This document shows, piece after piece, positions 277-56,636 of a stretch of 64,000 nt of DNA. The notes beneath the pieces are model-generated. The model ran no database searches. It was not told where the DNA came from and saw only the letters and a list, made by a program, of their open reading frames with translations. The position numbers and the translations under genes are program-made. The first letter of the stretch is position 1; each line of letters begins with the position of its first letter. Origin of the DNA: an uncultured Pseudomonadales bacterium (GTDB lineage Bacteria; Patescibacteriota; Microgenomatia; UBA1400; PJMF01); contig CAZWKL010000004.1 of the NCBI GenBank assembly GCA_964633875.1, positions 1,971-65,970 on the forward strand, in the 5' to 3' direction.

Positions 277-278
277 AT

Positions 279-8881: not shown

Positions 8882-10969
8882 TTGCGCAATCGTGATAGAA
8901 TAAAAAAGATGAAGCATTTATATGTGACGCCAGTAATTGGCTTGCCTCAAGTCACAGGTTGGTCTCAGGTTGTTGAGAACCCACACGCTGCCCCGAATAG
9001 ACTGATTTTTTCCTTTGCCCTGGCCGGAGAGCAAGCCGGTAATCTCGGCAGAGATATTTCCGAAGAGGTAGTCCAGTTTGTTCCTCAAACCTTGGAGGAA
9101 GCGTATAACTTTTTGGAAAATTTGGAAAAAAAATATCAGCAGCCCGAGGCAGAACTTTATTTTGCTGCCGGCATTTTTTTGCGGGACCAGGTGGCTTTTG
9201 CGGTTAAAGGCGGCAGTGTTTTGTTGAGACGCGACGGCAAGGTTGGTCCAATTGTTCATTCTGACGGAGCGTTCAAATTGGTAACCGGCAAGTATCTTAC
9301 TGATGACGTGATTGTCTTAGCTACTAAGCAGGCTGTGAGTTTTTTCAATGAAATTGAGTTGAAGTTCAAGACTGGTTTTGACACCGATACCATCATTACT
9401 TCAATAGTGCCCGGGCTGCACTCACAGGGCGATTCTTCTCTTTCTGCGCTGGCTTTTATTATTCCTTCGGAAATTGAGTATGAAGCAGAGAGTGAGGCAG
9501 ACGAAGCCTTGCTTGAAGTTTCTCTGGAAACTGACGCGGATGAAACGGCAGTAGTTTTGGAAGGTAGTGGGAATGGGGGGGTGGCGCCGCCGCAAATCAG
9601 CCCTGATGATGTGGGCGCTCCTAGTGTTGCCGCGGTTGAGGAGTTGGGTTTGAACGAACCGCCACCCCCCCAACCAAAATCTAATCTGGTTTTGCAGAAA
9701 TCAGGTCAATTTTTGACCCATTCAACTAAATTACTGAAAATAATTGCTAAAGCCTTAGTATTGGTAGGCGGGGCGCTGGCCGGCAAACTCCGAAACATCA
9801 ACTGGTCGAGGCTCAACCCGCGCAATTTTCGTGCTGGCCACCAATACCTTGGCCAGCGCCCCTCAGCCAAAATGCTCAAAATTGCCGCCGCCGCCCTCAT
9901 CCTGCTGATAGTCATTGCCGGCGGTTGGTACTTGCACTCCCAAAGAATCAACGCCGCCCGCGAAGAAGTCCGGCTTCTATTGCTCCCTCAAGCGGCCACC
10001 CTCGAATCGGCCAGAAGTTTGGCTGCTCAAAACCCGGTTGGCTCCCGGGAGCTAGTGGCGGTGTCCATCCGAGAGCTTGAAGTGATGCGCAACGAGCACC
10101 AAGACGATGGCAACGATATCTTTGTTGAAGAAATCGAAAAGCAACTGATCGCGGCCAGAGCTTTGTATGAAGAAATTTCCGGCAGAGAAGAGTTCGCGGA
10201 GCTTTCCATTTTTTATGATTTGCGCCTGGTTAAGCATGATTTTGTTGTCACTCAAGCGGCGGCTTTAGAAAATGTAGCCGCTCTTGTTGACAGCGGTCAA
10301 AATCAACTTGTTATCCTCAATTTAGAAACCAAGCAACCTCACGTGGTGACGCTTGGCGATATTGGTTCTATCCAGGATGTGAAAGTGCGCGGCGAAGACG
10401 TCTTAATTCTTGCCGATGGCATTTATTCTGTACCCATCAATGGCTCTGAGGTTCAAGAATTAATTGCCGTGGGTGATTCCAATCGCGAAGGCGAGATGCT
10501 TGGTGTTTATGATCGCTACGTCTATGTTTTTAATCCCGGCAGGAGAAATATCTACCGTTATGCCGGTAACAACGACGGTAGTTTTTCTGATCCGATTGGT
10601 TGGATGCAAGCCGCCAGAGGTCTGGTTTATGAAGACGTTGCCTCCTGGGCGATTGATGGCGATATCTGGATGGCAACTTCAACCGGTGAAGTCAGGCGGT
10701 TTGCCAGCGGGCGGGATGTAGAGTTTGTTATCAACGGCCTCACCGATGGTTTTAATTCCTCTCTGAGATTGGCTACCAGCGCCGGCCTCGAATCAATTTA
10801 TGTGCTTGAGCCTGAGGCTCACCGGCTAGTGGTGGTTGCCAAAAGTGGCGACTTTTTGCGGGAAGTCAAAAGTTCATCTTTAGCCTCGGCCAATCACCTG
10901 ATTGTGAGTGAATCACTGGGGAAAGCCTTTGCCGTCAGTGGCTCGCTCCTTTTTGAAATTAATCTCTGA
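8882..10969 (+). CDS. Membrane protein with an N-terminal PP2C/SpoIIE-like (possibly degenerate) phosphatase domain, an acidic linker, a TM and a C-terminal beta-rich domain
   Basis: FAVKGGSVLLRRDGKV and DDVIVLATK resemble the PP2C motifs (VGDSRAYLLRDG / GDxLLLCSDGL). TM is LKIAAAALILLIVIAGGWYL. Start is ambiguous (8882 or 8912). Confidence 0.4.
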   Translation: MRNRDRIKKMKHLYVTPVIGLPQVTGWSQVVENPHAAPNRLIFSFALAGEQAGNLGRDISEEVVQFVPQTLEEAYNFLENLEKKYQQPEAELYFAAGIFLRDQVAFAVKGGSVLLRRDGKVGPIVHSDGAFKLVTGKYLTDDVIVLATKQAVSFFNEIELKFKTGFDTDTIITSIVPGLHSQGDSSLSALAFIIPSEIEYEAESEADEALLEVSLETDADETAVVLEGSGNGGVAPPQISPDDVGAPSVAAVEELGLNEPPPPQPKSNLVLQKSGQFLTHSTKLLKIIAKALVLVGGALAGKLRNINWSRLNPRNFRAGHQYLGQRPSAKMLKIAAAALILLIVIAGGWYLHSQRINAAREEVRLLLLPQAATLESARSLAAQNPVGSRELVAVSIRELEVMRNEHQDDGNDIFVEEIEKQLIAARALYEEISGREEFAELSIFYDLRLVKHDFVVTQAAALENVAALVDSGQNQLVILNLETKQPHVVTLGDIGSIQDVKVRGEDVLILADGIYSVPINGSEVQELIAVGDSNREGEMLGVYDRYVYVFNPGRRNIYRYAGNNDGSFSDPIGWMQAARGLVYEDVASWAIDGDIWMATSTGEVRRFASGRDVEFVINGLTDGFNSSLRLATSAGLESIYVLEPEAHRLVVVAKSGDFLREVKSSSLASANHLIVSESLGKAFAVSGSLLFEINL

Positions 10970-30172: not shown

Positions 30173-30246
30173 TACCAGGGGTGGGATTCGAACCCACGAC
30201 CTTTGGTTTATGAATCCAATGCTCTAACCAACTGAGCTACCCTGGC
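30173..30246 (-). tRNA. tRNA-Met (anticodon CAT), elongator type (could alternatively be a lysidine-modified tRNA-Ile2)
   Basis: Cloverleaf GCCAGGG acceptor stem, D arm GCTC/GAGC, anticodon loop TTCATAA, T arm GGTCG-TGGGTTCGAATCCCA-CGACC. G1-U72 pair. CCA is not encoded. Confidence 0.75.
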
Positions 30247-30404: not shown

Positions 30405-30473
30405 CGCGGGATAGTGTACGGTGCACGTGAGGCTCATAATCTCACAGGCTAGGTTCGACTCCTAGTCCCGCAA
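30405..30473 (+). tRNA. tRNA-Met (anticodon CAT), probable initiator tRNA-fMet
   Basis: Acceptor CGCGGGA/TCCCGCA with a C1·A72 mismatch, the bacterial initiator hallmark. Anticodon loop CTCATAA, T arm CTAGG-TTCGACT-CCTAG. Upstream promoter TTGCAC-17-TATAAT. The anticodon stem lacks three consecutive G-C pairs. Confidence 0.65.
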
Positions 30474-31307: not shown

Positions 31308-31424
31308 AGAAATGGCAATATGGTAATATAAGTAGTGTTATCGGTTAAAATATGACCCTTAAACCTGTCCCTCAACTCGTAATTGTTAATAATTAGTATA
31401 GCACTGAGAGAAGCAGTCAAATTT

Positions 31425-32291
31425 ATGTCAAAAACTTTAGCAGATGCCCAGGCTCTCTATGAAGATCATCTGAGGGGCGAAGGGAAAGCCAATGCCACGG
31501 TTATTGCTTACACTAAGGATATTGAGCAATTAATTGAATTTGTGGGCAAAAAAGGCAAAACTCAGGTTGATGAAGTCAATCAAAATGACATTGAAGAGTT
31601 CAAAGAGAATCTTAAAAAACTCCGCTACACTGGCAAATCTATCTCCAGAAAAATTAACTCAATTAAGTCTTTTTTCCGCTTTCTGATTGCAGAAGGCCAC
31701 ATCGACTCCAATCCCGCCGACGAAATTGCTCATCCCAGATTTGAACAAACTCCCCCACGTGTGCTTTCCAAAGTGGAGTACCGCGCCTTGCGTGACGCCT
31801 GCAGAGGCGATTCTCGCATGGCCGCCATTGTCGAGCTGTTGCTCCAAACCGGCATGAGGATCAGTGAGCTGGCCAATTTACAAATGTCCGACCTCGATTT
31901 CGACCGCAATGTCATTTACATCCGCACCCAAAACTCCCGCGAGGCCCGCAAAGTGCCACTCAATGACGCGGCCAAAAAAGCCCTGATGGATTACCTGGAA
32001 TCCAGGCCAAGAACCAAAGAAAAAATGGTTTTTCTCACCAAAACCTGCCGGCCTTTTTTGGTCAGGAACATTCGCACCGCTATCGACCGCTACTTCAGGT
32101 TGGCAGGCATCAAAGACGCCAAGGTCAACGACCTGAGGCACACTTTCGTGATCGAGCAGCTCAAAGCCGGCACGCCGCTGGTGTATGTTTCCCAGTTGGT
32201 GGGCCACAAGAGAATTACCACCACCGAAAGATATCTCAAGTTGATCGAACAGCCTGAAATGGAACCCAATATTCAAATTGAGGAACTTTAA
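31425..32291 (+). CDS. Tyrosine site-specific recombinase, XerC/XerD-like
   Basis: N-terminal SAM-like core-binding domain and a catalytic domain with R...HxxR...Y (LRHTF, HKRITTTERY). Start set at the ATG at 31425. Lies about 1 kb from two tRNA genes. Confidence 0.8.
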   Translation: MSKTLADAQALYEDHLRGEGKANATVIAYTKDIEQLIEFVGKKGKTQVDEVNQNDIEEFKENLKKLRYTGKSISRKINSIKSFFRFLIAEGHIDSNPADEIAHPRFEQTPPRVLSKVEYRALRDACRGDSRMAAIVELLLQTGMRISELANLQMSDLDFDRNVIYIRTQNSREARKVPLNDAAKKALMDYLESRPRTKEKMVFLTKTCRPFLVRNIRTAIDRYFRLAGIKDAKVNDLRHTFVIEQLKAGTPLVYVSQLVGHKRITTTERYLKLIEQPEMEPNIQIEEL

Positions 32292-32294
32292 GCT

Positions 32295-32384
32295 ATGTTT
32301 TCACCGATGATCAACCAAATTATCACCCAACTGGCTTGGTGGCGAGACTCTCTCAGCTTCGTGAGGGCAAGTTGGTGGCGCTAA
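32295..32384 (+). CDS. Putative trpS leader peptide with two Trp-Trp pairs
   Basis: ATG 3 nt after the xerC stop with GAGGAA 10 nt upstream. Encodes MFSPMINQIITQLAWWRDSLSFVRASWWR (4 Trp in 29 aa). Its TAA lies 23 nt before an intrinsic terminator and 92 nt before trpS. Confidence 0.5.
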   Translation: MFSPMINQIITQLAWWRDSLSFVRASWWR

Positions 32385-32430
32385 ATTTCATTTAGTTTCA
32401 TAGCCAAAGCTCCCTCACGGGAGCTTTTTT
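32355..32430 (+). promoter_or_regulatory. Transcription attenuator: antiterminator (AGCTTCGTGAGGG) versus terminator (AGCTCCC-TCAC-GGGAGCT-T6)
   Basis: Segment 32355-32367 is complementary to 32412-32425 (CCCTCACG, then a bulge, then AGCT), which comprises the terminator loop and 3' arm. The two structures are mutually exclusive. Confidence 0.55.
32407..32430 (+). terminator. Intrinsic terminator upstream of trpS
   Basis: AAGCTCCC-TCAC-GGGAGCTT followed by TTTTT. Confidence 0.7.
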
Positions 32431-32475
32431 ACGGTCCATTTTACGATACAATAGCAAAATAATAAGGAAAAATTT

Positions 32476-33459
32476 ATGAAAAAACGAGTCTTATCCGGCA
32501 TTAGATCCACAGGCAAACTGCACTTAGGTAATTACTTGGGTGCAGTTAAAGGCATGATTGATCTGCAAAACAACCCGGATTACGAAACTATCTACATGGT
32601 GGCTGATGTGCACACCCTCACCACGCCATATGATATCGAGGCCCTCAGGCAGAACCGCCGCGAGATTATTGTAGATTACTTGGCGGCCGGTTTGGATCCG
32701 GAGAAAAGCATTTTATTTCAGCAGGCTAACGTGAGTGAGCATCTGGAGTTGGCTTTCTACTTTGCCTCGGTAACGACAGTGGCCAAGATGCAACACCTGC
32801 CGACTTTTAAGGACAAGGTGAAACAACACCCTGATCATGCCACCTTGGCTTTGCTCAATTATCCGATGTTGATGGCGGCCGATATTCTGATTTACAAAGC
32901 CTCTTTGGTGCCGGTGGGCCTTGATCAGGAGCCGCACTTGGAGGCCACCAGGCAAGTAGCGCGCAAGTTCAACCAGGTTTATGGCACCGATTTTCCCGAA
33001 CCGCAGCGTTTTACCACTCCAGGTGAGTACGTGCCCTCACTTACCGGCGAAGGCAAAATGAGTAAATCGGTGCCGGGTAGTTACATCAATCTGGTTGATG
33101 ACTTGGCAACGATCCAGAAAAGAATTGCCGCCGTGCCGACCGATTCAGGCCAAGGTGATCTTATTCCTCAGAGCGGTGGGGTAGCTGGTTTGCTGACTTT
33201 GGTGGAGTTGATTGAGGGCCAGGAACAGCGCCGTCAATATGAAGAGCAGTACCTTGGCGCGGGTTTGCGCTATGGTGAGCTGAAAAAGCAGTTGGCTCAG
33301 GCCATTTATGATGAGCTGGCTTCATTTAGGGAAAAGCGGGCCGAGATGATGGCCAATCCCGATTATGTAGATGCAGTGATCGTTGAAGGCGCCAAAAAAG
33401 CTCAGGCTATTGCTGGAGCTACTTTGGCAGAAGTTAAAGAAAAAATTGGCCTAGTTTAA
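32476..33459 (+). CDS. trpS: Tryptophan--tRNA ligase
   Basis: Class I HIGH-like (TGKLHLGNYLG) and KMSKS motifs. 327 aa. Confidence 0.9.
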   Translation: MKKRVLSGIRSTGKLHLGNYLGAVKGMIDLQNNPDYETIYMVADVHTLTTPYDIEALRQNRREIIVDYLAAGLDPEKSILFQQANVSEHLELAFYFASVTTVAKMQHLPTFKDKVKQHPDHATLALLNYPMLMAADILIYKASLVPVGLDQEPHLEATRQVARKFNQVYGTDFPEPQRFTTPGEYVPSLTGEGKMSKSVPGSYINLVDDLATIQKRIAAVPTDSGQGDLIPQSGGVAGLLTLVELIEGQEQRRQYEEQYLGAGLRYGELKKQLAQAIYDELASFREKRAEMMANPDYVDAVIVEGAKKAQAIAGATLAEVKEKIGLV

Positions 33460-33486
33460 CAGCCAAAGCAAAAAAGGGGGATAAGA

Positions 33487-33819
33487 ATGAAACCAAGTAT
33501 TAACTTTGAAGATTTCATGAAGCTGGATATTCGCGCGGCGACAGTGCTTGCCGCTGAAGAAATAGCCGGCGCGGACAAACTTTATCAGCTCACTTTAGAT
33601 GTGGGCGAGTTGGGGGAGCGGACAGTAGCAGCCGGCATTAAAGCCTGGTATAGTGCTGAGGAACTGGTGGGCAAGCAAGTAGTTTACTTGGCCAATCTGG
33701 AGCCGCGCTTGCTTAGAGGAGTGGAAAGCCAGGGCATGATTTTGGCGGCGGACAATGAAGAGTCAGCTGTTCTCCTCACTCCGGAAACCGCGGTTGTTAG
33801 TGGAGCGCTGGTCAGATAA
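33487..33819 (+). CDS. csaA: tRNA-binding protein (CsaA/Trbp111/Myf-domain OB-fold)
   Basis: FMKLDIRAATVLAAEEI...KLYQLTLDVGE...SQGMILAA matches the EMAP/CsaA tRNA-binding domain. Confidence 0.7.
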   Translation: MKPSINFEDFMKLDIRAATVLAAEEIAGADKLYQLTLDVGELGERTVAAGIKAWYSAEELVGKQVVYLANLEPRLLRGVESQGMILAADNEESAVLLTPETAVVSGALVR

Positions 33820-33834
33820 TATTAAGTTTCTGTG

Positions 33835-33861
33835 TTAGCAAATCAAAGATTACTCTGCTAA
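33835..33861 (+). promoter_or_regulatory. CIRCE-like inverted repeat upstream of ftsH
   Basis: TTAGCA-AATCAAAGATTACTC-TGCTAA is a 27-nt element with the conserved TTAGCA/TGCTAA ends of CIRCE; the inner triplets diverge. Confidence 0.35.
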
Positions 33862-33920
33862 ATAATGCTAGCTTAAGAGAGGGTTGCGTGCTAGAATAAG
33901 TTCGTCTTTAAGGCAAGAAT

Positions 33921-36900
33921 ATGGAAAAAAACACTCAAAAACCGACCGAACAAGCTCATAAATCCAACCAGAAAATTGTTCCTTCCATGTCTAAAAATCC
34001 CGTTAAAAAAACTGGTGCTAATGGTACTAATGGTGCTAAGAAAAACGACCAGCTGCTGCCAAAAATTGAGATGCCCATGAATGTGAACAATATTTACAAC
34101 AAGGGTCTTTTATATTTTATCCTGGGCACCATAGCGATGATTTTCTTTTTCTCGCTTTTTTCCTCTGAGCCGGCGCAAGAAATTTCTATCAGCGAGCTGG
34201 TCCAGGATATTCGGAACGAGCAGGTTGAAAAGATTGTTGTTTCCGGCGATGAGTTGCGCGCCACTTACTCGGACGAGAGTTTGCGCACTGTGCAGAAGGA
34301 ATCAGGCCAGAGCGCCGTGGAAATTTTTGAAGCGGCCAATCTTGATCTGGCCGAGGTTGAGCTTGAGGTGGAAGCTTTTTCGTTTGGCTCGATGATTTGG
34401 GAATTGGTGATCAGTTTGTTGCCGATTCTGTTGATGATCGGCTTTTTCTTTATTATTTTCCGTCAGGCTAAGGGCGGCCAGGCCGGCATTATGGGTATTG
34501 GCAAAAGCAAGGCGAAGCTGTTTGTTAAAGGCAAGCAGAACACTAGTTTTAATGATGTGGGTGGAATGGATGAGGCTAAAAAAGAGTTGGAAGAGGTAGT
34601 CGACTTTTTGAAAAATCCCAAAAAGTATGCCAAAGTTGGCGCCCGCACACCCAAAGGCGTGCTTTTAGTGGGCCCAGCCGGCACAGGCAAATGTGTCACA
34701 GGAGATACTATTGTTTGGACCAACAAAGGCTTGATGGAGATTAGGGAAATTCCCCGCTATTACTACGTTGATCCGCAATCGCATCAAGTTGCGGGAGCCG
34801 GATTGACTAGTTTTAACCTTGAAGACACTGTTGCCACCGATCAGCTTGCCTCACATTGGTACGATTTGGGTGAGCAGGAAACCATTAAGGTACAACTTAA
34901 ACAGGGTCTTTCTCTTGAGGGCACGCCAGAGCATCCGGTGGTGGTGATGACAAGTGAAGGTAAATTGAAATTTCGCCAACTCAAAGATCTGCAATTGGGT
35001 GATCAATTAGCAATTCAGTATGGCAGCCAGGCTTTTGGCAATCTTGATTTGGTAGATGAAGATACAGCGTACTTGATGGGGTTGCTAACGGGAGACGGCA
35101 ATATGAGCCACTCAAGTCGGGTTGGTTTGACCAACATCGACGATGAGATCATCACCTTTTTTAAACGGTTCGTTCTCGAAAGGTTTGGCGAAGCCAAGTT
35201 AACCAAGAACAATCAATCTTACCTAGTTTCTAATTGGGATTTTAAGCGCTATCTCTACCAGATGGGCATGTCCTACTTGCTCTCTTTTGACAAAGCAGTT
35301 CCTCCGACTATTCTCCAGGCTAAGAAAGCAGTGCAGGTCAAATTTTTACAGGGGTTATTTGATGCTGATGGGTCTATTGGCAAAACTCGGGCTGAGTTTG
35401 AGTACACTACCGTTAGCGAACGGATGGCACGACAGGTGCAGATGATGCTTTTGAATCTTGGGGTAGTGGCGAGTCTGAATGAGAAAGGCAGGGTTGCCAA
35501 CGGTTACAAGCGCCCTGTGTACAGAATTACTCTCACCGGGGATAGGTTGAAGGTCTTTGGCCAGCAGGTAGGTTTCATGCTCACCAGAAAACAACAGTTG
35601 CTCGAAGCTCATCTTGATAAGAAATTGAGCAGCAATACCAACATCGATATCATTCCTGGTATTTCACAGCTAATGGTGGAGGCCTGGACGAGCCTATCTG
35701 AGCAGCAACTCAGCCATGAAAAACTATCAAAGACAATTGATAAAGTTAGAAGAAGGTTGCGCGTTTCTAGAAACACCTTGACAGAGTTTGTGCGCTATTG
35801 TTCGGCGCTGGCTATCGAAGTGCCTCACCTCGAGTATCTGCGCAGTTTGCTTGAAGCCAACTTATTCTTTTCTCCAGTGGTGCAGATTCAGCCAGCCTAC
35901 AACCGCGTGTATGATTTTACTGTACCCAAGACCCACAGCTTTTTAGGTAATGGACTGATTAACCATAATACTCTGTTGGCCCGCGCAGTTGCCGGGGAAG
36001 CCAACGTTCAGTTTCTTTCGATTGCCGGCAGTGAGTTTATGGAGATGTTGGTGGGTGTGGGGGCTTCTCGGGTGCGGGATCTTTTCACTACGGCTAAAAA
36101 ATTGGCGCCCTCGATTATTTTCATTGATGAAATTGATGCGATTGGCCAAACCAGAGGTAAGGGGAGTTTTGGCGGCCATGACGAGCGCGAGCAGACTCTC
36201 AACCAAATCTTGGTAGAAATGGATGGCTTTGATCAAAACGACAACGTTATTGTCATGGCCGCCACCAACCGCGGCGACATGCTCGACGCTGCCCTGATTC
36301 GCCCAGGCCGCTTCGACCGGCGGGTGATGGTGCGCTTGCCCGATCTGGAAGAGCGCAAGTACATTATTTCCATCCACGCCAAAGGCAAGCCTTTTGCCAA
36401 AGAAGTGAAGTGGGAGAGAGTGGCCAAAAGAACGGTCGGTTTTTCAGGCGCCGATATCGAAAACATGCTCAACGAAGCCGCCATTGCGGTTGCTCGCGAA
36501 TCCAGAAAAGAGATTACCATGGAGGACATCGAAGAAGCGGCGCTCAAGGTTAAGTTAGGACCGAGTAAGAAACAACTTTCCAGCAAACTGGAGCGAACCA
36601 TGACGGCTTATCACGAAGCCGGCCACGCTATCGTTGCTCATGCTTCAGCCCATGCCGACGCAGTCACCCGGATTTCTATCGTTTCCCGCGGTCATGCCCT
36701 GGGTTTTACCGTCAGCTCTCCCGAGAGAGACAAGTTCCAAACCACTAAGTCGGAGTTACTTGATCGTATTACCGTTCTGCTTGGTGGCCGGGCGGCGGAG
36801 CAGATGATCTTCAATGAACAAACCGCCGGCGCAGGCAACGACATTGAAAGAGCCACCAGAATTGCCAGAGCCATGGTGGTGGAATACGGCATGAGTGAGT

Positions 36901-37220
36901 TGGGAGCCATGAACTATGCCCCGCTCTATGACAACGCCGATTATGGCAGATCCTGGAACGAACCACTGAGGATTTCTGACCGCTTGCAGGAGAAGGTTGA
37001 TGAGCAGGTTAATAAAATTATTCAAGAGGGTGAAAAACGGGCTGCTGAGCTCCTTAAAACTCATAAGAAAAAGCTGGATAAAGTTTCCAATCGATTGCTG
37101 GAAATAGAAACCCTTGATGGCGATGAGTTTGCCAGACTGATGGGTTTCAAAAAAATCAAAATTGATGACGCTTACGACTTAGCTGAAAACGGTACCAATG
37201 AAAGCGAAGACGAAGCTTAA
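33921..37220 (+). CDS. ftsH: ATP-dependent zinc metalloprotease FtsH, interrupted in-frame by an intein in the Walker A motif
   Basis: N-terminal TM pair, AAA module split as GPAGTGK | intein | [20 protein letters not shown] zinc site and a C-terminal helical region are present. 1099 aa total (673 aa without the intein). Confidence 0.85.
34692..35969 (+). mobile_element. Intein (426 aa) with a LAGLIDADG homing endonuclease domain, inserted after the FtsH P-loop Lys
   Basis: Block [10 protein letters not shown] and block B TPEHPV. Two LAGLIDADG motifs ([20 protein letters not shown]). C-terminal VYDFTV...LINHN with +1 Thr. Precise excision would restore [15 protein letters not shown]. Confidence 0.8.
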
Positions 37221-37231
37221 ATACAACTAGG

Positions 37232-38218
37232 TTGAAAATGACTGATCAGACTTTTTTAGATAACTTCCAAGAAGAGGAGCGAAGAGGCAGATTTGTTCTG
37301 GTTGATGGTCACGCTTTAATTTACCGGGCTTATCACGCTTTTCCTGCTCTCACCAACTCCGCCGGGCAACTGGTGAACGCAGTTTATGGCTTCAGCCGAA
37401 TTTTGCTCAACGCTATTAATGATTTTGGTCCTGAGTACATCGCGGTGGCTTTTGATCATAAAGCTCCCACCAAACGCTCAGAAACTTTTGTGGCCTACAA
37501 AGCCCATCGTCCCAAGATGCCTGACGACTTAGTGCCGCAAATCGATATTATTAAAGACGTGATTGATGTTCTTAATATTCCCAGATTTGAGCAAGCTGGT
37601 TATGAAGCTGATGATTTGATCGGCACGGTGGCTGCCAGGCTCACTTTAGAGAAAAATCCCACTCAGTCGGGCGAGTTGCTTACCACCATTGTGACGGGTG
37701 ACAAAGACATGTTGCAGCTGGTTGATGATGACACTCATGTTTTCATTCCTGGGCGCGGCAAGTTCAGCCGGGACATCGAGTATAACGAAGACACAGTGAT
37801 GGAAAAACTCGGTATTCACCCCAACCAAGTGGTGGATTTCAAAGCCTTGATGGGTGATCCGTCGGACAATATTCCCGGGGTAAAAGGAGTGGGCAAAAAA
37901 ACCGCCCAAAAACTGATCCAAACTTTTGGCACGCTCGATCAACTCTACACGGCGGTGGAAACAGGCTCACAGCCGGAGCTTCTTAAAGGGGCGCTGCTTG
38001 ATAAACTCAAGGCAGAAAAGACTACCGCCTATCTCAGTCAAGAACTAGCCACTATTCTCAGAGATATTCCGATTGATTTTTCTCTGGAAAGCTGCCGGGT
38101 TTCAGAATATGATAAAACTAAAGTGGTGGAACTTTTCAAAACCCACGACTTTAATTCATTAATCAGACTGCTGCCTAATGACAAATTCGAACAAGGTGTC
38201 CAAGATGCCCTTTTTTAG
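37232..38218 (+). CDS. 5'-3' exonuclease (stand-alone Pol I N-terminal/FEN-like domain)
   Basis: FVLVDGHALIYRAYHAF...AFDHKAPTKR...EADDLIG...GDKDMLQL...GVKGVGKKTA, the PIN-like plus H3TH signature. Confidence 0.75.
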   Translation: MKMTDQTFLDNFQEEERRGRFVLVDGHALIYRAYHAFPALTNSAGQLVNAVYGFSRILLNAINDFGPEYIAVAFDHKAPTKRSETFVAYKAHRPKMPDDLVPQIDIIKDVIDVLNIPRFEQAGYEADDLIGTVAARLTLEKNPTQSGELLTTIVTGDKDMLQLVDDDTHVFIPGRGKFSRDIEYNEDTVMEKLGIHPNQVVDFKALMGDPSDNIPGVKGVGKKTAQKLIQTFGTLDQLYTAVETGSQPELLKGALLDKLKAEKTTAYLSQELATILRDIPIDFSLESCRVSEYDKTKVVELFKTHDFNSLIRLLPNDKFEQGVQDALF

Positions 38219-38227
38219 GAATACCAG

Positions 38228-39322
38228 ATGAAAGTAGCGCTGGTTCACGACTATCTCCGGGACTATGGCGGCGCTGAGCGCGTGCTTGAAGCGTTGCACC
38301 GAATGTTTCCGGATGCGCCGGTGTATGTGGCTTTTGTGGATCGGCAAAAGCTGGGGATTCATTGGGAAAAGTTTGCTGATTGGGATTTACGCCAAAGTTG
38401 GCTGACTAGAATTCCTTTCTATAAAAAGCTCTTTTCACCTTTGCGAGTCTGGGCGCCCAATTATTTCCAAGCCTTTGATCTCAGCGATTTTGATTTAGTT
38501 ATTTCCTCGAGTAACGCCTATTTTTCCAAAGCGGTAAGAGTGCCCAACGGCACTCATGTTTGTTATTGCCACACACCCGCCCGCTCTTTGTATGGTTACA
38601 CCACCATGACGGATTGGCAGAAAAACTGGCTGGTGAAGCTGGGTGGCAACCTAATCAATCATTACTTGCGGGTGGTGGATTTTCAGATAGCGCGGAAAGT
38701 GGCTTATTTTATTGCTAATTCCCAGGAAACTCAGCGGCGGATTACCAAATTTTACCGCCGCGATTCAACCGTGATTTATCCGCCGATTGCAATGCCGGAA
38801 AAATTGCCGGCCCAGAAAAAGCTAGGCGATTACTACCTTCATGTTGGCCGGATTGCCAGAAGCAAGCACGTGGATCTAGCCATTGAAGCCTGTACCAAAT
38901 TGGGTTTACCGCTGAAAGTTGGCGGGGCTCAGGGTATTAGCCACCTGGAAAAATTAGCCGGGCCGACGGTGGAGTTGCTGGGCGAAGTGACTGATGAACA
39001 GTTGCAAGAACTGTACTCGGGCGCCAAAGCGCTCTTGTTTCCGGCAGAAGATGAAGATTTCGGCATGATTCCGGTGGAAGCCATGGGCTATGGGGTGCCA
39101 GTGATTGCTCACCGCTCCGGCGGACCCTTGGAAAGCATTGCTGAGGGTAAAACCGGCGTCTTTTTCGATGAGTTTACCCCCGAAAGTTTAGCCGCCGCCA
39201 TCAAGAAAGCAGACAAAATCAGTTGGGACCGCCGAAAAATTCACGCTCACGCCAAGCAGTTCAGCACCGCTGCTTTCGAAAAAAATCTCCGTCAATTCTT
39301 GAAGACTTTGTTGACAACTTAG
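38228..39322 (+). CDS. Glycosyltransferase family 4 (GT-B fold)
   Basis: C-terminal EDFGMIPVEAMGYGVPVIAHRSGG (the E-x7-E region). Confidence 0.65.
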   Translation: MKVALVHDYLRDYGGAERVLEALHRMFPDAPVYVAFVDRQKLGIHWEKFADWDLRQSWLTRIPFYKKLFSPLRVWAPNYFQAFDLSDFDLVISSSNAYFSKAVRVPNGTHVCYCHTPARSLYGYTTMTDWQKNWLVKLGGNLINHYLRVVDFQIARKVAYFIANSQETQRRITKFYRRDSTVIYPPIAMPEKLPAQKKLGDYYLHVGRIARSKHVDLAIEACTKLGLPLKVGGAQGISHLEKLAGPTVELLGEVTDEQLQELYSGAKALLFPAEDEDFGMIPVEAMGYGVPVIAHRSGGPLESIAEGKTGVFFDEFTPESLAAAIKKADKISWDRRKIHAHAKQFSTAAFEKNLRQFLKTLLTT

Positions 39323-39349
39323 CAAACACGTTCTATTATTGCTAATAGG

Positions 39350-40072
39350 ATGATAGATCTAACCGCGCGCCAAGTGCAAATTTTAAGGGCCATTATTGAG
39401 GAGTTCATTGATACGGCCGAACCGGTCGGCTCCGACACCATCGACAAAAAGTTTTCCATCGGTGTTTCTCCGGCCACTATTCGCAACGAAATGGTTTACC
39501 TGTCCAAGCAGGGTTATTTAAACAAAACCCACAGCAGCGCCGGTCGAGTGCCAACCCCCCTGGCTTTCAAACTCTACGTCAATGAGCTGATGAAAGAGCA
39601 GGAACTAACGGTGGCCGACGAGGTTTCAGCCAAAGAAAAAATTTGGAACAGCCGCCAGGAAATTGACCGCCTGCTTTCTCAAATCACCAAAGTCCTGGCC
39701 GACCGCTCCAACGCCCTGGCGGTAGCGATGATTGATGAAGATCATCTCTATCACTCAGGCTATGCCAATTTGCTGCAGATGCCGGAATTTTATGATATTA
39801 AAGTGATGCGCAACGTACTGCAACTGATTGAAGAAACTAATTTACTTGAGGAAATTTTTGAATTTGGCGCCAGCGAAAATCTGGTTCAAGTAGTTTATGG
39901 CGCCGAACTGGGCAACAAAAACCTCGAGCCGGTGGGGGTCATTCACATGGCGCTTAATATTGGCGGCCAAGAGTGCCACATGGGAGTTTTCGGCTCCAGC
40001 CGCTTTGACTACTCGTACGTAATCCCGATGATGAAATACGTCCGGGGTCTGATTTTAGAAATAGTTGAGTAA
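39350..40072 (+). CDS. hrcA: Heat-inducible transcription repressor HrcA (short form)
   Basis: LTARQVQILRAIIEEFIDTAEPVGSDTI...IRNEMVYLSKQGYLNKTHSSAGRVPT, a winged helix. 240 aa. Confidence 0.75.
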   Translation: MIDLTARQVQILRAIIEEFIDTAEPVGSDTIDKKFSIGVSPATIRNEMVYLSKQGYLNKTHSSAGRVPTPLAFKLYVNELMKEQELTVADEVSAKEKIWNSRQEIDRLLSQITKVLADRSNALAVAMIDEDHLYHSGYANLLQMPEFYDIKVMRNVLQLIEETNLLEEIFEFGASENLVQVVYGAELGNKNLEPVGVIHMALNIGGQECHMGVFGSSRFDYSYVIPMMKYVRGLILEIVE

Positions 40073-40081
40073 TTTTCTAGT

Positions 40082-40951
40082 ATGAATATGACAAAAAATA
40101 GCGAGAGCGATCATCCTGTGAGCAATGACAGTGTAGGCCGCTTCATGGTAGCCGTAGGAGCGATTGTCGAGCACGAAGAGACAGAAACGATCTTGCTGAT
40201 CAAAAGAGCGGGCGCTGATTATGCCAGTGGAGCTTGGGAAGTGGGGTATGGCAGGCTTGATCAAGGCGAAAATCCGGAAGCTGGCTTGAAGCGAGAGTTC
40301 AAAGAAGAAACCGGCCTAGATATTAAGCCAAAAAAACTTCTCAACACCTGGTTTTTTAATCGTGGTGACAAGGAAGCTGCAGAAAACGAAGTTATTGGCC
40401 TGACTTATTGGGCCACAGCCAGCAGTCAAAAAGTGAAACTTTCTTCTGAACATTCCGAGTATCAGTGGCTAAGTCCGGAAGCAGCGCTAGAGTTGGCAGA
40501 GCCAAAATTAATTGCTAACGAAATTAGAGCTTTTATTGAGGCTAAAGCAGCGGCAAAAGAAGCTCAAGCAGCGGATCAGGCCAGGCAAAGGGCTCTGGCT
40601 GATTATCACAACTTGGTTCGCCGCACTCAGGCGGAGCGCGGTGAGTACACCAAGTTGGCAGCCAGTCAACTGATTGAAGACCTGATCGAACCGCTGGAAC
40701 ACCTAAGTATGGCTGCTGAACAACTCGATGATGAGGGCCTGACTATGGTGGTATCGCGGTTGTGGACAGTGTTGCACAGTCACGGTTTGGAAGAAGTCGA
40801 GGCTTTGGGCCGGGAATTTGCTGTCGAAACCATGGAAGCGGTGGATAAAGAAAACGGTGGCGACGTGGTGATTAAGGTCTTGCGGCGCGGCTATATTTTG
40901 AACGGCAAAGTTATTCAGCACGCCAAGGTTGTTTTGGGCGCTGATAACTAA
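40082..40951 (+). CDS. grpE: Fusion protein: NUDIX hydrolase domain plus GrpE nucleotide-exchange-factor domain
   Basis: Residues about 20-150 carry a Nudix box (GRLDQGENPEAGLKREFKEETGL). Residues about 165-289 align with GrpE (DYHNLVRRTQAE coiled-coil, LIEDLIEPLEHL, VIKVLRRGYILNGKVIQHAKVVL). Sits between hrcA and dnaK. Confidence 0.75.
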   Translation: MNMTKNSESDHPVSNDSVGRFMVAVGAIVEHEETETILLIKRAGADYASGAWEVGYGRLDQGENPEAGLKREFKEETGLDIKPKKLLNTWFFNRGDKEAAENEVIGLTYWATASSQKVKLSSEHSEYQWLSPEAALELAEPKLIANEIRAFIEAKAAAKEAQAADQARQRALADYHNLVRRTQAERGEYTKLAASQLIEDLIEPLEHLSMAAEQLDDEGLTMVVSRLWTVLHSHGLEEVEALGREFAVETMEAVDKENGGDVVIKVLRRGYILNGKVIQHAKVVLGADN

Positions 40952-40953
40952 TA

Positions 40954-40980
40954 CTAGCAGTCAAACAGTTTGTTTGCTAA
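40954..40980 (+). promoter_or_regulatory. CIRCE-like element upstream of dnaK
   Basis: CTAGCAGTC-AAACAGTTT-GTTTGCTAA matches the CIRCE consensus at 7/9 and 7/9 positions. It shares the left half (TAGCAGTC) with the groES element. Confidence 0.4.
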
Positions 40981-41049
40981 AATTAGGGAGTCAGTTTTAA
41001 CATTGTACAGTTAAAGCAAGAAAAATAAATATACTGGAAAGGATGAATT

Positions 41050-43002
41050 ATGGCAGATAATAAAGCCACCGGCAAAATCATCGGTATTGACTTGGGTACT
41101 ACCAACTCTGCAATTGCAGTGATGGAAGGCGGTACACCAAAAATTATTCCTACTTCAGAGGGCAGGAATACTTTTCCTTCAATTGTGGCTTTTAAAGGCG
41201 ACGAAACTCTAGTCGGGGATACTGCTAAACGCCAGATGGTGCTCAATTCTAAAAAAACTGTCAACTCAGTCAAGCGGTTTATGGGCGGCAAGTTCAAAGA
41301 TAAACGGGTTAAGGAAGCATTCAAACATGTGGCCTATGCAGTTGAGGAGGGCAAAGATGGTATGGCCGTCATCAAAATTGATGGCAAAACTTACACTCCT
41401 CAAGAAATTTCTGCCAAAATTTTGGCTAAAGCCAAAGCTGACGCGGAAAATTATCTAGGTGGCAAAGTTACCCGCGCGGTTATTACCGTGCCGGCTTATT
41501 TTGACGACTCCCAGCGTCAGGCTACCAAACAAGCCGGAGAAATTGCCGGACTGCAAGTAGAGCGGATTGTCAATGAACCCACCGCGGCCGCTCTGGCCTA
41601 CGGACTGGATAAGGCCGGTAACAAAACCATTGCCGTTTATGACCTGGGTGGCGGCACTTTCGATATTTCTATTTTGGAAATTGGTGATGGTGTCTTTGAA
41701 GTCAAATCCACTAATGGTGACACTTTCCTTGGTGGCGATGATTTTGACTCCCGGATTATTGATTGGATTGTGACTGAGTTCAAAAAAGAGCATGGCAAAG
41801 ACCTCTCCAAAGATCCTCAGGCGCTGCAGCGGATTAAAGATGCCGCCGAAAAAGCCAAGATTGAGCTTTCCAGCCGTCAAGAAACTGACATCAACCAGCC
41901 GTTTATTACCCAAGGCGATGACGGGCAACCCCTCCACCTCACCATGGCTATCGATAGAGCCAAGTACGAAGAGCTGGTCGATGACCTAATTGAAAGTACT
42001 TTTGGTCCGGTCAAGCAGGCGCTCAAAGACGCCGGCATGAAAGCTGCCGATGTTGAGGACATTGTTATGGTTGGCGGCATGACCCGGACTCCTAAAATTC
42101 AGGAAAAAGTCAAGGAGTTTTTTGGTAAAGACACTCACAAGGGTGTCAACCCGGATGAGGTGGTAGCGATCGGCGCTGCCATCCAAGCCGGAGTGATTGG
42201 CGGCGATGTGCAGGATGTGGTCTTGCTGGATGTTACACCGCTTACTCTCGGTCTGGAAACTCTGGGTGGGGTGCGAACACCGCTGATTGAGCGCAACACC
42301 ACTATTCCCACCAGCAAATCGCAAGTTTTTTCCACTGCGGCTGATAATCAAACCCAGGTAGAGATCAATGTGCTCCAGGGTGAGCGGGAAATGGCAGCGG
42401 ACAACAAGTCGCTTGGGCGCTTTATTCTTGACGGAATTCCGCCGGCGCGTCGAGGTATGCCGCAGATTGAAGTTATTTTTGATATCGACTCCAACGGTAT
42501 TCTCAACGTTACGGCTAAGGATAAAACCACTGGCAAGGAGCAGAAGATCACCATCCAGAACTCCACCAACCTTTCGGACGAAGAAGTGGAAAAGATGAAA
42601 CAAGATGCTGAGGCTCACGCAGAGGAAGATCAGGCCAAACGCGAACTGGTTGAGGCCAGAAATAAGGCCAGGTCGGTGGCTTTCGAACTCGAAAAGCAAC
42701 TGGATGAGTATGGCGATAAAGTGGCTGAAGATACCAAAAAAACCATCGCTGATAATATTGAAAAACTCAAAGAGTTGGCGGAAAAAGAAGATGCCACCAA
42801 AGAAACTTTAGACGCCGCGGTAGATGAAACCTTCGAATCGGCGCAAAAGATGGCTGAAGCGATGCAGCAAGCCCAAGCTGAGGCTGGTGCAGCTGCCGGG
42901 GCGGATAGCGAAGCCGACGAAGCTAGCGCTGCCGACACCGATAAGAAAGAAAGTAAAAAACCCAACGGCGAAGTTGAAGAAGGTGACATCGTGAACGAGT
43001 AG
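41050..43002 (+). CDS. dnaK: Chaperone DnaK (Hsp70)
   Basis: [18 protein letters not shown] and a GP-rich/EEVD-like acidic tail. Confidence 0.95.
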
Positions 43003-53435: not shown

Positions 53436-56400
53436 CTACTGCCTCAACAGCCCCAAAAAGCTGAAGGCAGAAGCTAGATTTTCAATGACTAAATCGAAGG
53501 CTGATCGGGTAGCTTTGGGCGCGATAGTGGTGACGTCAATACTGCGAGCTTCGTTGCCGGCGGCGTCTTTGGTAATGGCCCGCAGATGATAAACTTGGCT
53601 GGGTGTGAGCCCAGAGATAATGACGGTGTGGTTGGTGGTGAGGTTGCCGTCTTCTTGAGTTTTTTGGCTGTAGCTGCCGCCGGTACCGGCCCCAAACTCG
53701 ACTTGCGAAGTGGCTGGTTCGTCAGTATCCCAGGTGACAACCAACTGAGCCTTGATGTCTCCAGCCGCAAAGCCCACTGGTGGGATAGTACCGCCAATTA
53801 CCTTGAGGTTGATAATCTGCGGCGGCCTGGTATCGGTAGCAGTAGTGAAGTTGAAGGTGTCGGAAACGGCTTCGTTGCCAGCTCGATCTCTACCCTTGAC
53901 CACCAACTGATATTGCTGTTGGGGCAGCAAACCGGAAACTGTCATTTGGTGCTCGCCGCCTCTGAGTTCAACATTAACTTCATCCCGGGCGGCGCTAGCC
54001 TGACCAGTTGGATAGTAACTTACCACTGAGGACATGGGTGTATTGACACTCCAGCTCACCAGCACCGTTGTCTGGGCACTGCCGGCAATTTCCTGCAAGC
54101 GGACATTGCTGATGCGCGGACGCGGCATAGTTTCAAAAGTCAAAGCCTGACCTTCATACTCAAAGCCTTCGCTGTCTACAGGATTAACCTTGTAGTAGTA
54201 GAGGCTGCCATCCTCAAGTTCTGTGAGTTCAGTAGTGAGGGTGACTTCTTCTCTGGAGGTGGCCACTTCTAACATCCCGCCAAAAGCAGTGCTTCTGCCG
54301 TAGTAAATCTTGACGCTGCTGGCTCCCTTAACAGTGTAGCGTAAAATGGCGTTACTCAGGCCAATTTGAGTGGCTTGAGGATCAGTGACAGTTGGTGCGC
54401 TTTCGGTTGTAAATCTTTTTTCTTCACTCTTGCCAGTGTTGCCGTCCTCATCTGTCCAGCGCGCTTGGTAATAGTAAGTTGTGCCAGGCAATAAATTAGT
54501 TAAGTTAATTTTGTGATCGGTTACTTGAGAGGAGTTGGAAGGCTCTTCATCAAAATAATCGCCCGATTTGGTGCCGTAAGCGATTTTGGAATCACTGTCA
54601 CGGTTGGTAGTCCAGATAATTTCGGCTTTTCTGGTGGTAATGGTTTTCACCTCTGGGCCGGAAGTAAGTTTGGCCGGATCAGAAAAACTACCTTTGGGTG
54701 TGAGGGCCACCGCGTTGGTGTAGGAAGGGTTGGCAATTGAGTCGGCACTGGTGTCACTGGTGCCGATGCGCCAGAAGTATTGACGTGAGTCATCCACGGT
54801 ATCGACATAGGCGGTGCCTGAGGTAGTAGTGATAGTCGTCCATGATTGGCCATCTGATGAGCGCTGGATGGTGTAGGTTAAGTCTCCGGTACCTCGATAA
54901 TCAGGATGATCCCAGGCCAGTGAGGCTCGCCAGAGAGAGGCGGCCTTGATTGAGGCGTCGGAAGCGGTAAGATTTTTGGCTGGATCAGGAAGGTCGGAAT
55001 CTAGAGTGAAATTACCGAAAATAAAGTTACTGGATGAGTAATTGTCTTCATCGTCTACCGCCACAACTCGGACGATGTTGTTGTCTTTTTGAACTCCTGG
55101 CAACATACCGGCAGCAACCGAGGTGCTAGTGGTAGGAATGTAGGTACCAGGATTGTTGCGGAGAGTGGCCAGCGTTACCGGCGGGGTGGTGTTGATCATA
55201 TAAAAGTATTGGGCTACAGTCTGTCCTTCGTCCGGTTGGGCTGCCGGCCAGGAAAGAGCAAACTCGTTGCTGGTGTTGATGTTGGGGGTGACGGTGACGA
55301 CAGCTCCTCCCTCAAAAATTGGCGCGTCACCGCCATAAGCCAGGCTGCCGGTGCGGTAGGTAGCGGGCGGAGAGGTGTTACCCGCTTCATCAACGGTTCT
55401 AAAGTAAATGATATTATCACCAATTTCGATCAAATCTCCATCCCGCTCGTCGGTCAGGTAGTAAGGTTGTTCCAAATTCAAGGCCGGGATAAAGTCGATA
55501 CCGAGTGTCGGATGAGTTTCACTGCCAAGCCAAGTATCGGTGTCCTTGATAGCATACTGCCACCCGAGCACGCCGGAATGTACATCACTGCTGGCCGCGC
55601 TGGCCGCGGGAGGATTAGTCGGCCAGGAAAAGTTCATGTCGGCGACGTTGTTGAAGGTCCCGGAGGCAGGATTAATAAAAGCGACATTATTAGGCGCCAC
55701 GCTATCAAAAGAGAAGCTCAGGCTGGCAGCAGCAGCACCGCCGCTCTCACCCTGATTGTAGGTATTGCCAGCCTGATCAATAGCTTTAATGCGCAGATGA
55801 TAGGTTGTCCCGTTTACAAAACTGCTAGCCAGGTAATCTCCGGCTGACAAGTCCAGGCTGGTGCCGGCCACTATAAACTGGCAGGGTGTACCAACAGTGT
55901 CTAGGGGTGAGTTGATTAGCAGGCCAGAGGTGCCCGCTTCACTCACATGGTTTCCCGGATCGGCGTCTGCTTCAGTACCAAGGTACAGACAGTAGCCTTT
56001 CAAACCTGTGCCAGCCTCATCGTCAGCGCCAGAGTCCCAGCTAAAGTACGGCGCAAAGCTGTTCGACCAGCCCCCATTGAGAATGATGTGGCCGCTGTCT
56101 GCTGATTGCATACTAATGTTGCTGGCATTTACCTCTGGTTCAACTGTGTCTATAGGCAGATCAGCGTCGATACTCACCCCCGGACTAGTAAAGTTGATCC
56201 AGCCTATGTCCTCGGAAAAGCCGTAGCCACTGAAAGTGCCGGTGTCCAGATCTATAGTTACATTGCTGTTGTAATCGCTAAAATCCAGATAGGCGGCGGT
56301 ATTCAACACGTAAGCTTTGCCCGCCAACAAACCAGTGTCTGGATCGTAAGTAACTGGGCCACTCGGGTTGTTGTCCGCTCCAAAAGCCACCCAGCCTAAG

Positions 56401-56636
56401 TCTTCCGAAAAGACATAGCCGGAAAACTTATGATGGGTCATGTTGATGTAAACTTGAGAGTTGTATTCGTCAAAATCCAGGAAGGCGCCAGTGTTTTCGA
56501 CTAAAGCTCGGCCAGTGACAGGAAAACTGGCCGCATGGACCAAAGGGCGAACCAAAAAGACCAACGCCAAAGCAGCCAACAAAAAAGCAGCGCTGGCCAC
56601 ATAGCGAACCCTGGTGTTTAGTAACACAAATAACAC
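53436..56636 (-). CDS. Large secreted/surface protein with N-terminal duplicated YLDF..YNS..FSGY.FSED.GW repeats and multiple fibronectin-III-like domains
   Basis: 1066 aa with a signal peptide. Internal repeats (AFLDFDEYNSQVYI...FSGYVFSEDLGWVAF and AYLDFSDYNSNVTI...FSGYGFSEDIGWINF). The Thr/Ser-rich beta-domain composition typical of Fn3. Confidence 0.6.
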   Translation of the reverse strand: MLFVLLNTRVRYVASAAFLLAALALVFLVRPLVHAASFPVTGRALVENTGAFLDFDEYNSQVYINMTHHKFSGYVFSEDLGWVAFGADNNPSGPVTYDPDTGLLAGKAYVLNTAAYLDFSDYNSNVTIDLDTGTFSGYGFSEDIGWINFTSPGVSIDADLPIDTVEPEVNASNISMQSADSGHIILNGGWSNSFAPYFSWDSGADDEAGTGLKGYCLYLGTEADADPGNHVSEAGTSGLLINSPLDTVGTPCQFIVAGTSLDLSAGDYLASSFVNGTTYHLRIKAIDQAGNTYNQGESGGAAAASLSFSFDSVAPNNVAFINPASGTFNNVADMNFSWPTNPPAASAASSDVHSGVLGWQYAIKDTDTWLGSETHPTLGIDFIPALNLEQPYYLTDERDGDLIEIGDNIIYFRTVDEAGNTSPPATYRTGSLAYGGDAPIFEGGAVVTVTPNINTSNEFALSWPAAQPDEGQTVAQYFYMINTTPPVTLATLRNNPGTYIPTTSTSVAAGMLPGVQKDNNIVRVVAVDDEDNYSSSNFIFGNFTLDSDLPDPAKNLTASDASIKAASLWRASLAWDHPDYRGTGDLTYTIQRSSDGQSWTTITTTSGTAYVDTVDDSRQYFWRIGTSDTSADSIANPSYTNAVALTPKGSFSDPAKLTSGPEVKTITTRKAEIIWTTNRDSDSKIAYGTKSGDYFDEEPSNSSQVTDHKINLTNLLPGTTYYYQARWTDEDGNTGKSEEKRFTTESAPTVTDPQATQIGLSNAILRYTVKGASSVKIYYGRSTAFGGMLEVATSREEVTLTTELTELEDGSLYYYKVNPVDSEGFEYEGQALTFETMPRPRISNVRLQEIAGSAQTTVLVSWSVNTPMSSVVSYYPTGQASAARDEVNVELRGGEHQMTVSGLLPQQQYQLVVKGRDRAGNEAVSDTFNFTTATDTRPPQIINLKVIGGTIPPVGFAAGDIKAQLVVTWDTDEPATSQVEFGAGTGGSYSQKTQEDGNLTTNHTVIISGLTPSQVYHLRAITKDAAGNEARSIDVTTIAPKATRSAFDLVIENLASAFSFLGLLRQ

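Follow-up and report, generated by a model that had tools for sequence, protein, structure and literature searches.

An intein with a LAGLIDADG endonuclease domain splits the Walker A motif of FtsH in Patescibacteria

Introduction

The clustering of inteins in the P-loops of ATPases is well known. In the survey by Novikova et al. (2016, PMC4760082), such inteins occur at site a of the RFC small subunit, site a of MCM and site b of DnaB, where they lie inside the Walker A motif of the ATPase domain, carry class-1 splicing residues (Cys1, a terminal His-Asn, and Thr or Ser at +1) and contain a LAGLIDADG endonuclease. Here we describe an intein with the same features in the ftsH gene of a stretch of 64,000 nucleotides, hereafter called the window (assembly GCA_964633875.1, contig CAZWKL010000004.1, positions 1,971 to 65,970 of the forward strand), which was deposited under the name of an uncultured Pseudomonadales bacterium and is placed by GTDB in the Patescibacteriota (Microgenomatia, UBA1400, PJMF01). 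It differs from the inteins of the survey in its host, the membrane protease FtsH, and in its carriers, members of the Candidate Phyla Radiation (CPR). The tables of the survey list no such carriers, and FtsH appears neither in its main text nor in its top-15 tables; an FtsH entry in the supplementary tables is possible. No description of an FtsH intein was found in the literature searched, in which papers mentioning both terms deal with inteins of PolB or RPB2 and with FtsH genes that have no connection to them. What is new is FtsH as an intein host site; the kind of intein itself is well known.

The described inteins that best match the window intein are PI-PfuI, the RNR intein of Pyrococcus furiosus (1dq3), and the TliVMA intein (7qss), both by sequence (E values of 8e-9 and 8e-7) and by fold (E ~1e-25, template modelling [TM] scores of 0.64-0.68). 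They share with it the arrangement in which a two-motif LAGLIDADG endonuclease, followed by a helical region, interrupts a Hint domain, but they are archaeal, only 19-20% identical to it, and reside in other host proteins at other insertion sites. PI-PfuI has an additional stirrup domain. By description, rather than by sequence or site, the FtsH intein also resembles the archaeal LonB protease inteins listed in Table 2 of Novikova et al. (2016, PMC4760082), which likewise lie within the AAA+ module of an energy-dependent protease of the membrane and make its maturation dependent on splicing, although in another protease family and another domain of life. Finally, the spread of inteins from P-loop to P-loop has been proposed in Anaeramoeba (PMC10710043), where related inteins sit in the Walker A motifs of proteins that are not homologous. 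A similar likeness is seen here, with inteins of AAA-only hosts nested in the FtsH clade; however, the Anaeramoeba case is eukaryotic and intragenomic, whereas the FtsH pattern extends across prokaryotic metagenomes, with no transfer dated and no donor traced.

Results

Anatomy of the ftsH intein

The N-extein, intein and C-extein are encoded in one frame by a single open reading frame (ORF) that is unbroken over 1099 aa (Table 1). The product scored 699.5 bits with the NCBIfam equivalog model FtsH_fam (TIGR01241; cut-off of 600), the two matched stretches flanking the insert, and contained the Pfam domains FtsH_ext (PF06480), AAA (PF00004), AAA_lid_3 (PF17862) and Peptidase_M41 (PF01434). It therefore has the attributes of FtsH, namely, an N-terminal membrane region, an AAA module with Walker A, Walker B and the second region of homology, and an HEXXH protease. 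The identical 1099-aa protein was found on five public contigs from independent sources (ENA, JGI), and thus the insert is not an assembly artefact. Public copies of this protein (NCBI, JGI, ENA, Logan) carry either no name or "hypothetical", and precomputed Pfam annotation already marks intein domains on it. NCBIfam returned no exception model for an intein-containing FtsH; over the P-loop and the intein, the protein gave partial matches to NCBIfam models for RFC with inteins.

The insert splits the Walker A motif between Lys and Thr (GPAGTGK/C…HN/T). All four profiles of the splicing and endonuclease domains scored above their curated cut-offs: Pfam Intein_splicing (PF14890) with 54.6 bits (cut-off of 35.8), Pfam LAGLIDADG_3 (PF14528) with 78.9 bits in two stretches (22.5), NCBIfam intein_Nterm (TIGR01445) with 36.3 bits (24.5) and NCBIfam intein_Cterm (TIGR01443) with 29.6 bits (15.6). 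The sequence has each of the residues expected of a class-1 intein, comprising Cys1, the TxxH of block B (G77-T78-P79-E80-H81-P82), the Asp and His of block F (VYD408FTVPKTH415SF), the HN of block G and Thr at +1. In both LAGLIDADG motifs, position 8 is occupied by the catalytic acidic residue (D135 and D226). Among solved structures, sequence matches were obtained to PI-PfuI, the Thermococcus/Pyrococcus VMA inteins and PI-PkoII, as well as to the CDC21 and RadA mini-inteins.

An AlphaFold2 model of the intein built from 19 sequences had a mean predicted local distance difference test (pLDDT) score of 91.8 and a predicted TM score (pTM) of 0.92. When compared by Foldseek, the model matched PI-PfuI, the TliVMA intein, PI-PkoII and PI-SceI (1dq3, 7qss, 2cw7 and 1vde) from end to end with E values of 1e-25 to 1e-10, and it also matched the mini-inteins 4oz6 and 6frg. 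The endonuclease core matched I-DmoI and I-Tsp061I (E ~1e-7, target-normalised TM ~0.7). In the predicted structure, the endonuclease interrupts a Hint fold between its N- and C-terminal splicing subdomains, and the endonuclease itself is predicted to have the pseudo-dimeric alpha-beta-beta-alpha-beta-beta-alpha LAGLIDADG fold. The helical linker that follows may be involved in DNA binding.

Table 1. Features of the window and their coordinates
Feature	Coordinates	Strand	Basis
ftsH precursor gene, N-extein, intein and C-extein in one frame	33921..37220	+	1099 codons plus stop; single ORF, FtsH profiles
N-extein, 257 aa: N-terminal tail, transmembrane and FtsH_ext region, start of AAA module, ends at Walker A GPAGTGK	33921..34691	+	aligns to 7tdo residues 4-211
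Intein, 426 aa, C1 to N426, 1278 bp	34692..35969	+	profiles, model, Foldseek, precise presence/absence vs L023
Hint N-terminal splicing subdomain, intein aa 1-118: block A Cys1 (34692-34694), block B GTPEHP (34920-34937; T78, H81)	34692..35045	+	intein_Nterm aa 1-85; beta-strand-rich model
LAGLIDADG homing-endonuclease domain, intein aa 119-300: LMGLLTGDG (35073-35099, D135), LQGLFDADG (35346-35372, D226)	35046..35591	+	LAGLIDADG_3; I-DmoI/PI-PfuI fold matches
Helical linker region, intein aa 301-388, joins endonuclease to C-terminal splicing subdomain	35592..35855	+	model helices 298-388
Hint C-terminal splicing subdomain, intein aa 389-426: block F (35907-35942; D408, H415), block G NGLINHN (35949-35969; H425, N426)	35856..35969	+	intein_Cterm
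C-extein, 416 aa plus stop: Thr+1 (35970-35972), Walker B IIFIDEID, sensor-1 AATNR, RPGRFD arginine-finger region, HEAGH, M41 protease	35970..37220	+	gapless across junction vs 7tdo
Left half of reconstructed homing site, 30 bp (arbitrary extent)	34662..34691	+	joined halves vs L023
Right half of reconstructed homing site, 30 bp (arbitrary extent)	35970..35999	+	joined halves vs L023
5'-3' exonuclease gene, GT4 glycosyltransferase, hrcA, NUDIX-GrpE fusion ORF, dnaK (heat-shock cluster); ftsH just upstream	38228-43002
trpS, tRNA-binding-domain gene, tyrosine recombinase (Phage_integrase); upstream of ftsH	31383-32291
tRNA gene	30173-30246	-
tRNA gene	30405-30473	+
5S rRNA gene at window start	160-277	+	Rfam 54 bits; adjacent 23S rRNA gene, if any, off-window

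Predicted splicing and the spliced product

Excision of the intein in silico left an FtsH of 673 aa with the junction-spanning sequence ...GPAGTGKTLLAR..., which was aligned to Thermotoga maritima FtsH (7tdo) with an E value of 3e-163 and no gap at the junction. The alignment runs over residues 53-650, and the product retains HEAGH, Walker B, sensor-1 and the arginine-finger region with RPGRFD. An earlier note on this DNA, made from the sequence alone, had proposed a LAGLIDADG-type intein between the Walker A Lys and Thr whose splicing would regenerate GTGKTLLA. Translation of 34692..35969 into 426 codons confirmed the coordinates, frame and motifs that it gave, including the canonical C1, TxxH, HN and T+1. 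The proposal itself was supported by the profiles, the predicted fold, the gapless alignment of the in-silico product to a solved FtsH, and an empty site in a relative (see below).

In the proposed mechanism, translation would give a 1099-aa precursor with a split ATP-binding loop that would be inactive as an ATPase and as a protease; with the Walker A Lys and Thr 426 residues apart, productive ATP binding would not be possible. Cys1 would undergo an N-S acyl shift, Thr+1, which is at the same time the Mg-coordinating Walker A Thr, would attack the thioester, and Asn426, aided by His425, would cyclise and release the intein. An O-N shift would then produce the native P-loop (GKT restored) in the 673-aa FtsH. 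The approximate masses, estimated from residue counts, are ~74 kDa for this FtsH and ~48 kDa for the 426-aa intein. Since the P-loop is split and no second ftsH copy was found within the window, FtsH function probably depends on splicing.

The pore-1 loop of FtsH in the C-extein (region 36060-36080) was observed to read M-L-V-G instead of the usual M-F-V-G; the aligned 7tdo has FVGVGA. The Leu is also found in Microgenomates-type relatives, and the Phe is kept in Parcubacteria-type relatives. The aromatic residue of this loop matters for substrate translocation in Escherichia coli FtsH.

An empty site in a close relative

A locus of a related genome (L023, CAZESB010000012) is syntenic with window positions 31695-40078. 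Nucleotide identity over this stretch is 85-91%, and the two extein cores are 98.6% identical. The ftsH gene of L023 lacks exactly the 1278 bp of the intein, the break falling codon-precisely between AAA (Lys) and ACT (Thr), so that the window and L023 form a natural filled/empty pair. The empty site of L023 is CTTTTGGTGGGGCCGGCGGGAACAGGCAAA/ACTTTGCTGGCGCGCGCAGTAGCCGGAGAA. When the two halves of the window site were joined, 50/60 nt were equal to this empty site, and all of the differences were synonymous. Such a filled/empty polymorphism is as expected of a mobile intein and is consistent with homing, although it does not prove it. As to direction, we tentatively favour a gain in the window lineage rather than a loss in L023.

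Distribution of FtsH P-loop inteins

One genome per GTDB species was scanned with the intein plus 30 flanking residues as the query, and 79 loci were returned. Twenty-two of these (L001-L022) were occupied at the GK/T site, 21 with complete in-frame inteins of 426-430 aa and one (L013) with an intein broken by a stop codon. Nearly all of the occupied loci are from CPR, and the labels among them include Levyi-, Ames-, Davies-, Blackburn-, Shapiro-, Woese-, Kuenen-, Lipton- and Vogelbacteria, Paceibacterota and Saccharibacteria; the Woesebacteria genome CP011214 is a complete one. In metagenomes, 32 further loci were found, with the intein at the same GK/T site in all 25 that had parsable junctions. 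The site was empty in 49/70 parsable related loci and in 43/62 sequences of the extein comparison. The earlier note had called an FtsH P-loop intein unusual and diagnostic of lineages such as CPR bacteria and archaea. The first term fits the silence of the literature, yet such an intein is present in at least 22 genomes at species level and in 32 loci from metagenomes. The second does not hold, given that most of the retrieved CPR relatives were empty, that one carrier is labelled as non-CPR, and that no archaeal FtsH carrier was seen.

This non-CPR carrier is P0005, a 710-aa nr protein labelled Pyrinomonadaceae, whose FtsH P-loop intein is 47% identical to that of the window and groups in the tree with Parcubacteria and Saccharibacteria alleles; its extein is typical of non-CPR FtsH. 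P0005 may have arisen by transfer between phyla, or its contig may be mis-binned. Another carrier is a protein named FtsH of a GW2011 metagenome-assembled genome (MAG), and the sequences have thus been public for years. Several loci (L002, L004, L006, L007, L018, L019, L023 and many of L026-L077) come from MAG records with TPA_asm titles naming an "uncultured Pseudomonadales" or "Gammaproteobacteria bacterium", and their FtsH, with or without the intein, is nearest to that of Patescibacteria. The organism labels on those records look unreliable. Judged by these relatives, the organism of the window is probably a CPR member of the Microgenomates type.

Distances between inteins and between exteins were compared with L001 left out and second inteins (see below) stripped. 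The two were weakly correlated (Mantel r of 0.27, reached by 95 of 5000 permutations). The closest inteins, those of L082 and L108, had an identity of 0.71 to the window intein at a host extein core identity of 0.68, the means for the family being 0.49 for the intein and 0.66 for the extein. A scan of viral contigs with the intein found no relative that would point to a phage vector, the single-sequence query reaching close relatives only.

Conservation and selection

Across 22 FtsH-site alleles 60 positions were invariant, including C1, T78, H81, D408, H415, H425 and N426 of the splicing domain and D135 and D226 of the endonuclease. Column conservation was 0.63 in the endonuclease domain, compared with 0.64 and 0.72 in the two Hint parts, and was lowest in the helical linker (0.52). 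In the pair L005/L020, the only one unsaturated at synonymous sites, the ratio of nonsynonymous to synonymous substitution rates (dN/dS) stood at 0.066 in the endonuclease and at 0.054-0.059 in the Hint parts; the endonuclease domain is therefore under purifying selection. The window intein is saturated at synonymous sites against every relative, and only the proportion of nonsynonymous differences (pN) can be compared between its domains; it was 0.215 for the endonuclease and 0.196 for the N-terminal Hint subdomain. No mini-intein derivatives were seen at the FtsH site, the alleles found being full length (425-432 aa). Because the catalytic residues, the conservation of the domain and a low dN/dS are all kept and mini-inteins are lacking, the sequences favour an endonuclease that is functional now or was so recently.

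The exception to an intact frame, L013 (Candidatus Vogelbacteria, JBJHBV010000002), has an in-frame TAA at 5318-5320 in place of a Val codon of block F (VYDLT-stop-PKIHSF), giving two ftsH ORFs. The stop may be that of a real pseudogene or may be an assembly or sequencing error.

A wider clan of P-loop inteins

An exhaustive search over 1.84 billion cluster representatives identified 10,468 relatives of the intein with E ≤ 1e-3, of which 504 reached E ≤ 1e-30. Among the top relatives, Cys1 was present in all 127 resolved N-terminal junctions, 103 of which were preceded by [G/A/S]-K, and 177/179 ended in HN. The +1 residue was Thr in 102, Ser in 72 and Cys in 5, a dominance of Thr and Ser that would follow from the double duty of this residue as splice nucleophile and Walker A Thr. 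The hosts of the clan include FtsH, other AAA proteins, DnaB-like helicases, PhoH, RecA, RecD2/UvrD, MutS, clamp-loader (RFC)-like proteins and terminase-like P-loop proteins. The FtsH intein is one member of an extensive clan of GK/T inteins in Walker A motifs; in the wider clan the inteins lie nearly always at GK/T or GK/S of other P-loop NTPases. In a bootstrapped neighbor-joining (NJ) tree, the FtsH-hosted inteins formed a clade together with three AAA-hosted inteins (88/100), and monophyly of the FtsH-hosted inteins alone was obtained in 0/100 replicates. The subclade that contains the window intein (Levyi-, Ames-, Davies- and Blackburnbacteria) was recovered with 97/100 bootstrap support.

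Second inteins in the ftsH genes of relatives

A second, different intein of ~450 aa, starting with Ser1 and ending in LLHN, was observed in the ftsH genes of L015 (5465-6817, Candidatus Blackburnbacteria), L019 (2795-4138) and L001 (5013 to the contig end, Candidatus Levyibacteriota). It is located at GVGA/SRVRDLF in L015 and L001 and at the sensor-1 motif VAA/TNRPD in L019. Despite these nonallelic sites, the second inteins of L015 and L019 were 48% identical over their full length (E value of 5e-138). They have essentially no relationship to the P-loop intein, and both sites are empty in the ftsH of the window. From their low extein-core identity, L083, L085 and L086 probably also carry this second intein.

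Genome neighborhood

No further inteins were found in the window when a hidden Markov model (HMM) of 13 family members was run against all six-frame ORFs of at least 100 aa, nor did Pfam identify any in the ten largest other ORFs of the window. The genes around ftsH and the RNA genes of the window are listed in Table 1. A 695-aa ORF at 8882-10969 (+) had no Pfam match at E ≤ 1e-5. The only domains recognised in a 1066-aa ORF at 53436-56636 (-) were purple-acid-phosphatase N-terminal, fibronectin type III and Big_13 domains; its product is probably a large protein that is secreted or located at the surface.

Discussion

The element between the Walker A Lys and Thr of the window ftsH is very probably an intein of the canonical class-1 type that bears a LAGLIDADG homing endonuclease with two motifs, and that splices and homes. 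Splicing and present endonuclease activity are what the conserved residues, read together with established intein chemistry, lead us to expect. Once freed, the intein's endonuclease would cut intein-less ftsH at the sequence coding for the P-loop, and repair from an occupied allele would copy in the 1278 bp. The proposed homing would account for the patchy distribution among CPR. Indeed, the patchy occupancy, the finding that the exteins nearest to that of the window are all intein-less, and the weak correlation between intein and extein distances together fit a homing cycle of horizontal gain and loss, and they rule out that the intein marks CPR as such.

Several observations nevertheless weigh against this reading, and some of them are also part of the case for an old vertical resident of CPR ftsH that still splices but no longer homes, its empty alleles, such as L023, having arisen by recombinational loss. 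The retrieval of empty alleles favoured window-like flanks, which overstates the nesting of the window among intein-less alleles. Thr is less common as a +1 nucleophile than Cys or Ser, although it is the commonest within the intein's own clan. Scans of genomes, metagenomes and viral contigs gave no donor above 71% amino acid identity, and a recent transfer therefore cannot be documented. The GC content of the intein (0.457) did not differ from that of the N-extein (0.453) or the window (0.476), the GC content at third codon positions (GC3) was also like that of the host gene, and no clear co-conversion tract was found at the junction, where the 60-nt identity to L023 was 0.83-0.87 compared with 0.65-0.97 elsewhere. 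Composition and co-conversion give no sign of a recent gain, each being equally compatible with it and with long residence. Vertical residence would also suit intein subclades that roughly track CPR groups, as the window subclade does, and a Mantel r that is positive. However, a dead endonuclease should decay or shrink to a mini-intein, yet both catalytic Asp residues and many other endonuclease residues are invariant in the 22 alleles, the dN/dS of the domain is low, and every allele is full length. In addition, the filled/empty difference occurs at only ~10-15% DNA divergence, and for L082 and L108 the identity of the intein equals or exceeds that of the extein. On balance, we consider the old resident unlikely, though it is the likeliest of the alternatives.

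It is also conceivable that the intein has been co-opted as a posttranslational switch, in which conditional splicing in response to redox state, temperature or metal would gate FtsH activity. Its position would make the precursor an obligate null for ATP binding, ftsH adjoins the hrcA-grpE-dnaK heat-shock genes, and conditional splicing is documented, in the accounts cited here, for RadA and DnaB inteins of the P-loop or ATPase domain (PMC4513877, PMC6195587). Nothing in the sequence requires such a switch, however. The exteins are free of Cys and the only other intein Cys, C370, is variable, leaving the known disulfide-trap mechanisms without a conserved partner and making a conserved redox trap unlikely. 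Moreover, most close relatives have no intein, which argues against an indispensable regulatory role, and we regard the switch as very improbable. That the insert is instead a nonsplicing, lineage-specific FtsH insertion, or a decaying pseudogene in a nonfunctional ftsH copy, can hardly be entertained. The stop codon in block F of L013 does show that such copies can be disrupted or mis-assembled, but the window ORF is intact over its 1099 codons and identical on five contigs, its splicing residues are all present and invariant across alleles, and Walker B, sensor-1, the arginine fingers and HEAGH are kept, with a score above the FtsH equivalog cut-off.

Returning to an intein that splices and homes, we conclude that FtsH, a central membrane quality-control protease, joins the list of intein hosts, and that CPR/Patescibacteria hold a sizeable family of related inteins at one FtsH site. 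The data confirm the known rules that inteins prefer P-loops and that related inteins sit in the P-loops of different ATPases, and what they mainly add is the filled/empty pair and CPR ftsH as a host of inteins at several sites. For annotation, the consequence is that gene callers and length- or domain-based pipelines see a protein of 1099 aa. The near-isogenic empty site of L023 provides a ready substrate for the study of endonuclease specificity and of the homing cycle in uncultured bacteria. A bolder and, in our estimation, improbable proposal is that CPR ftsH is an intein hot spot, that the P-loop intein gates the maturation of the sole FtsH, and that the clan spreads by recognising the P-loop-coding DNA of nonhomologous ATPases. 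If this were true, the gating would act in organisms with very small regulatory repertoires, and the pair formed by the window and L023 makes both the gating and the spread testable.

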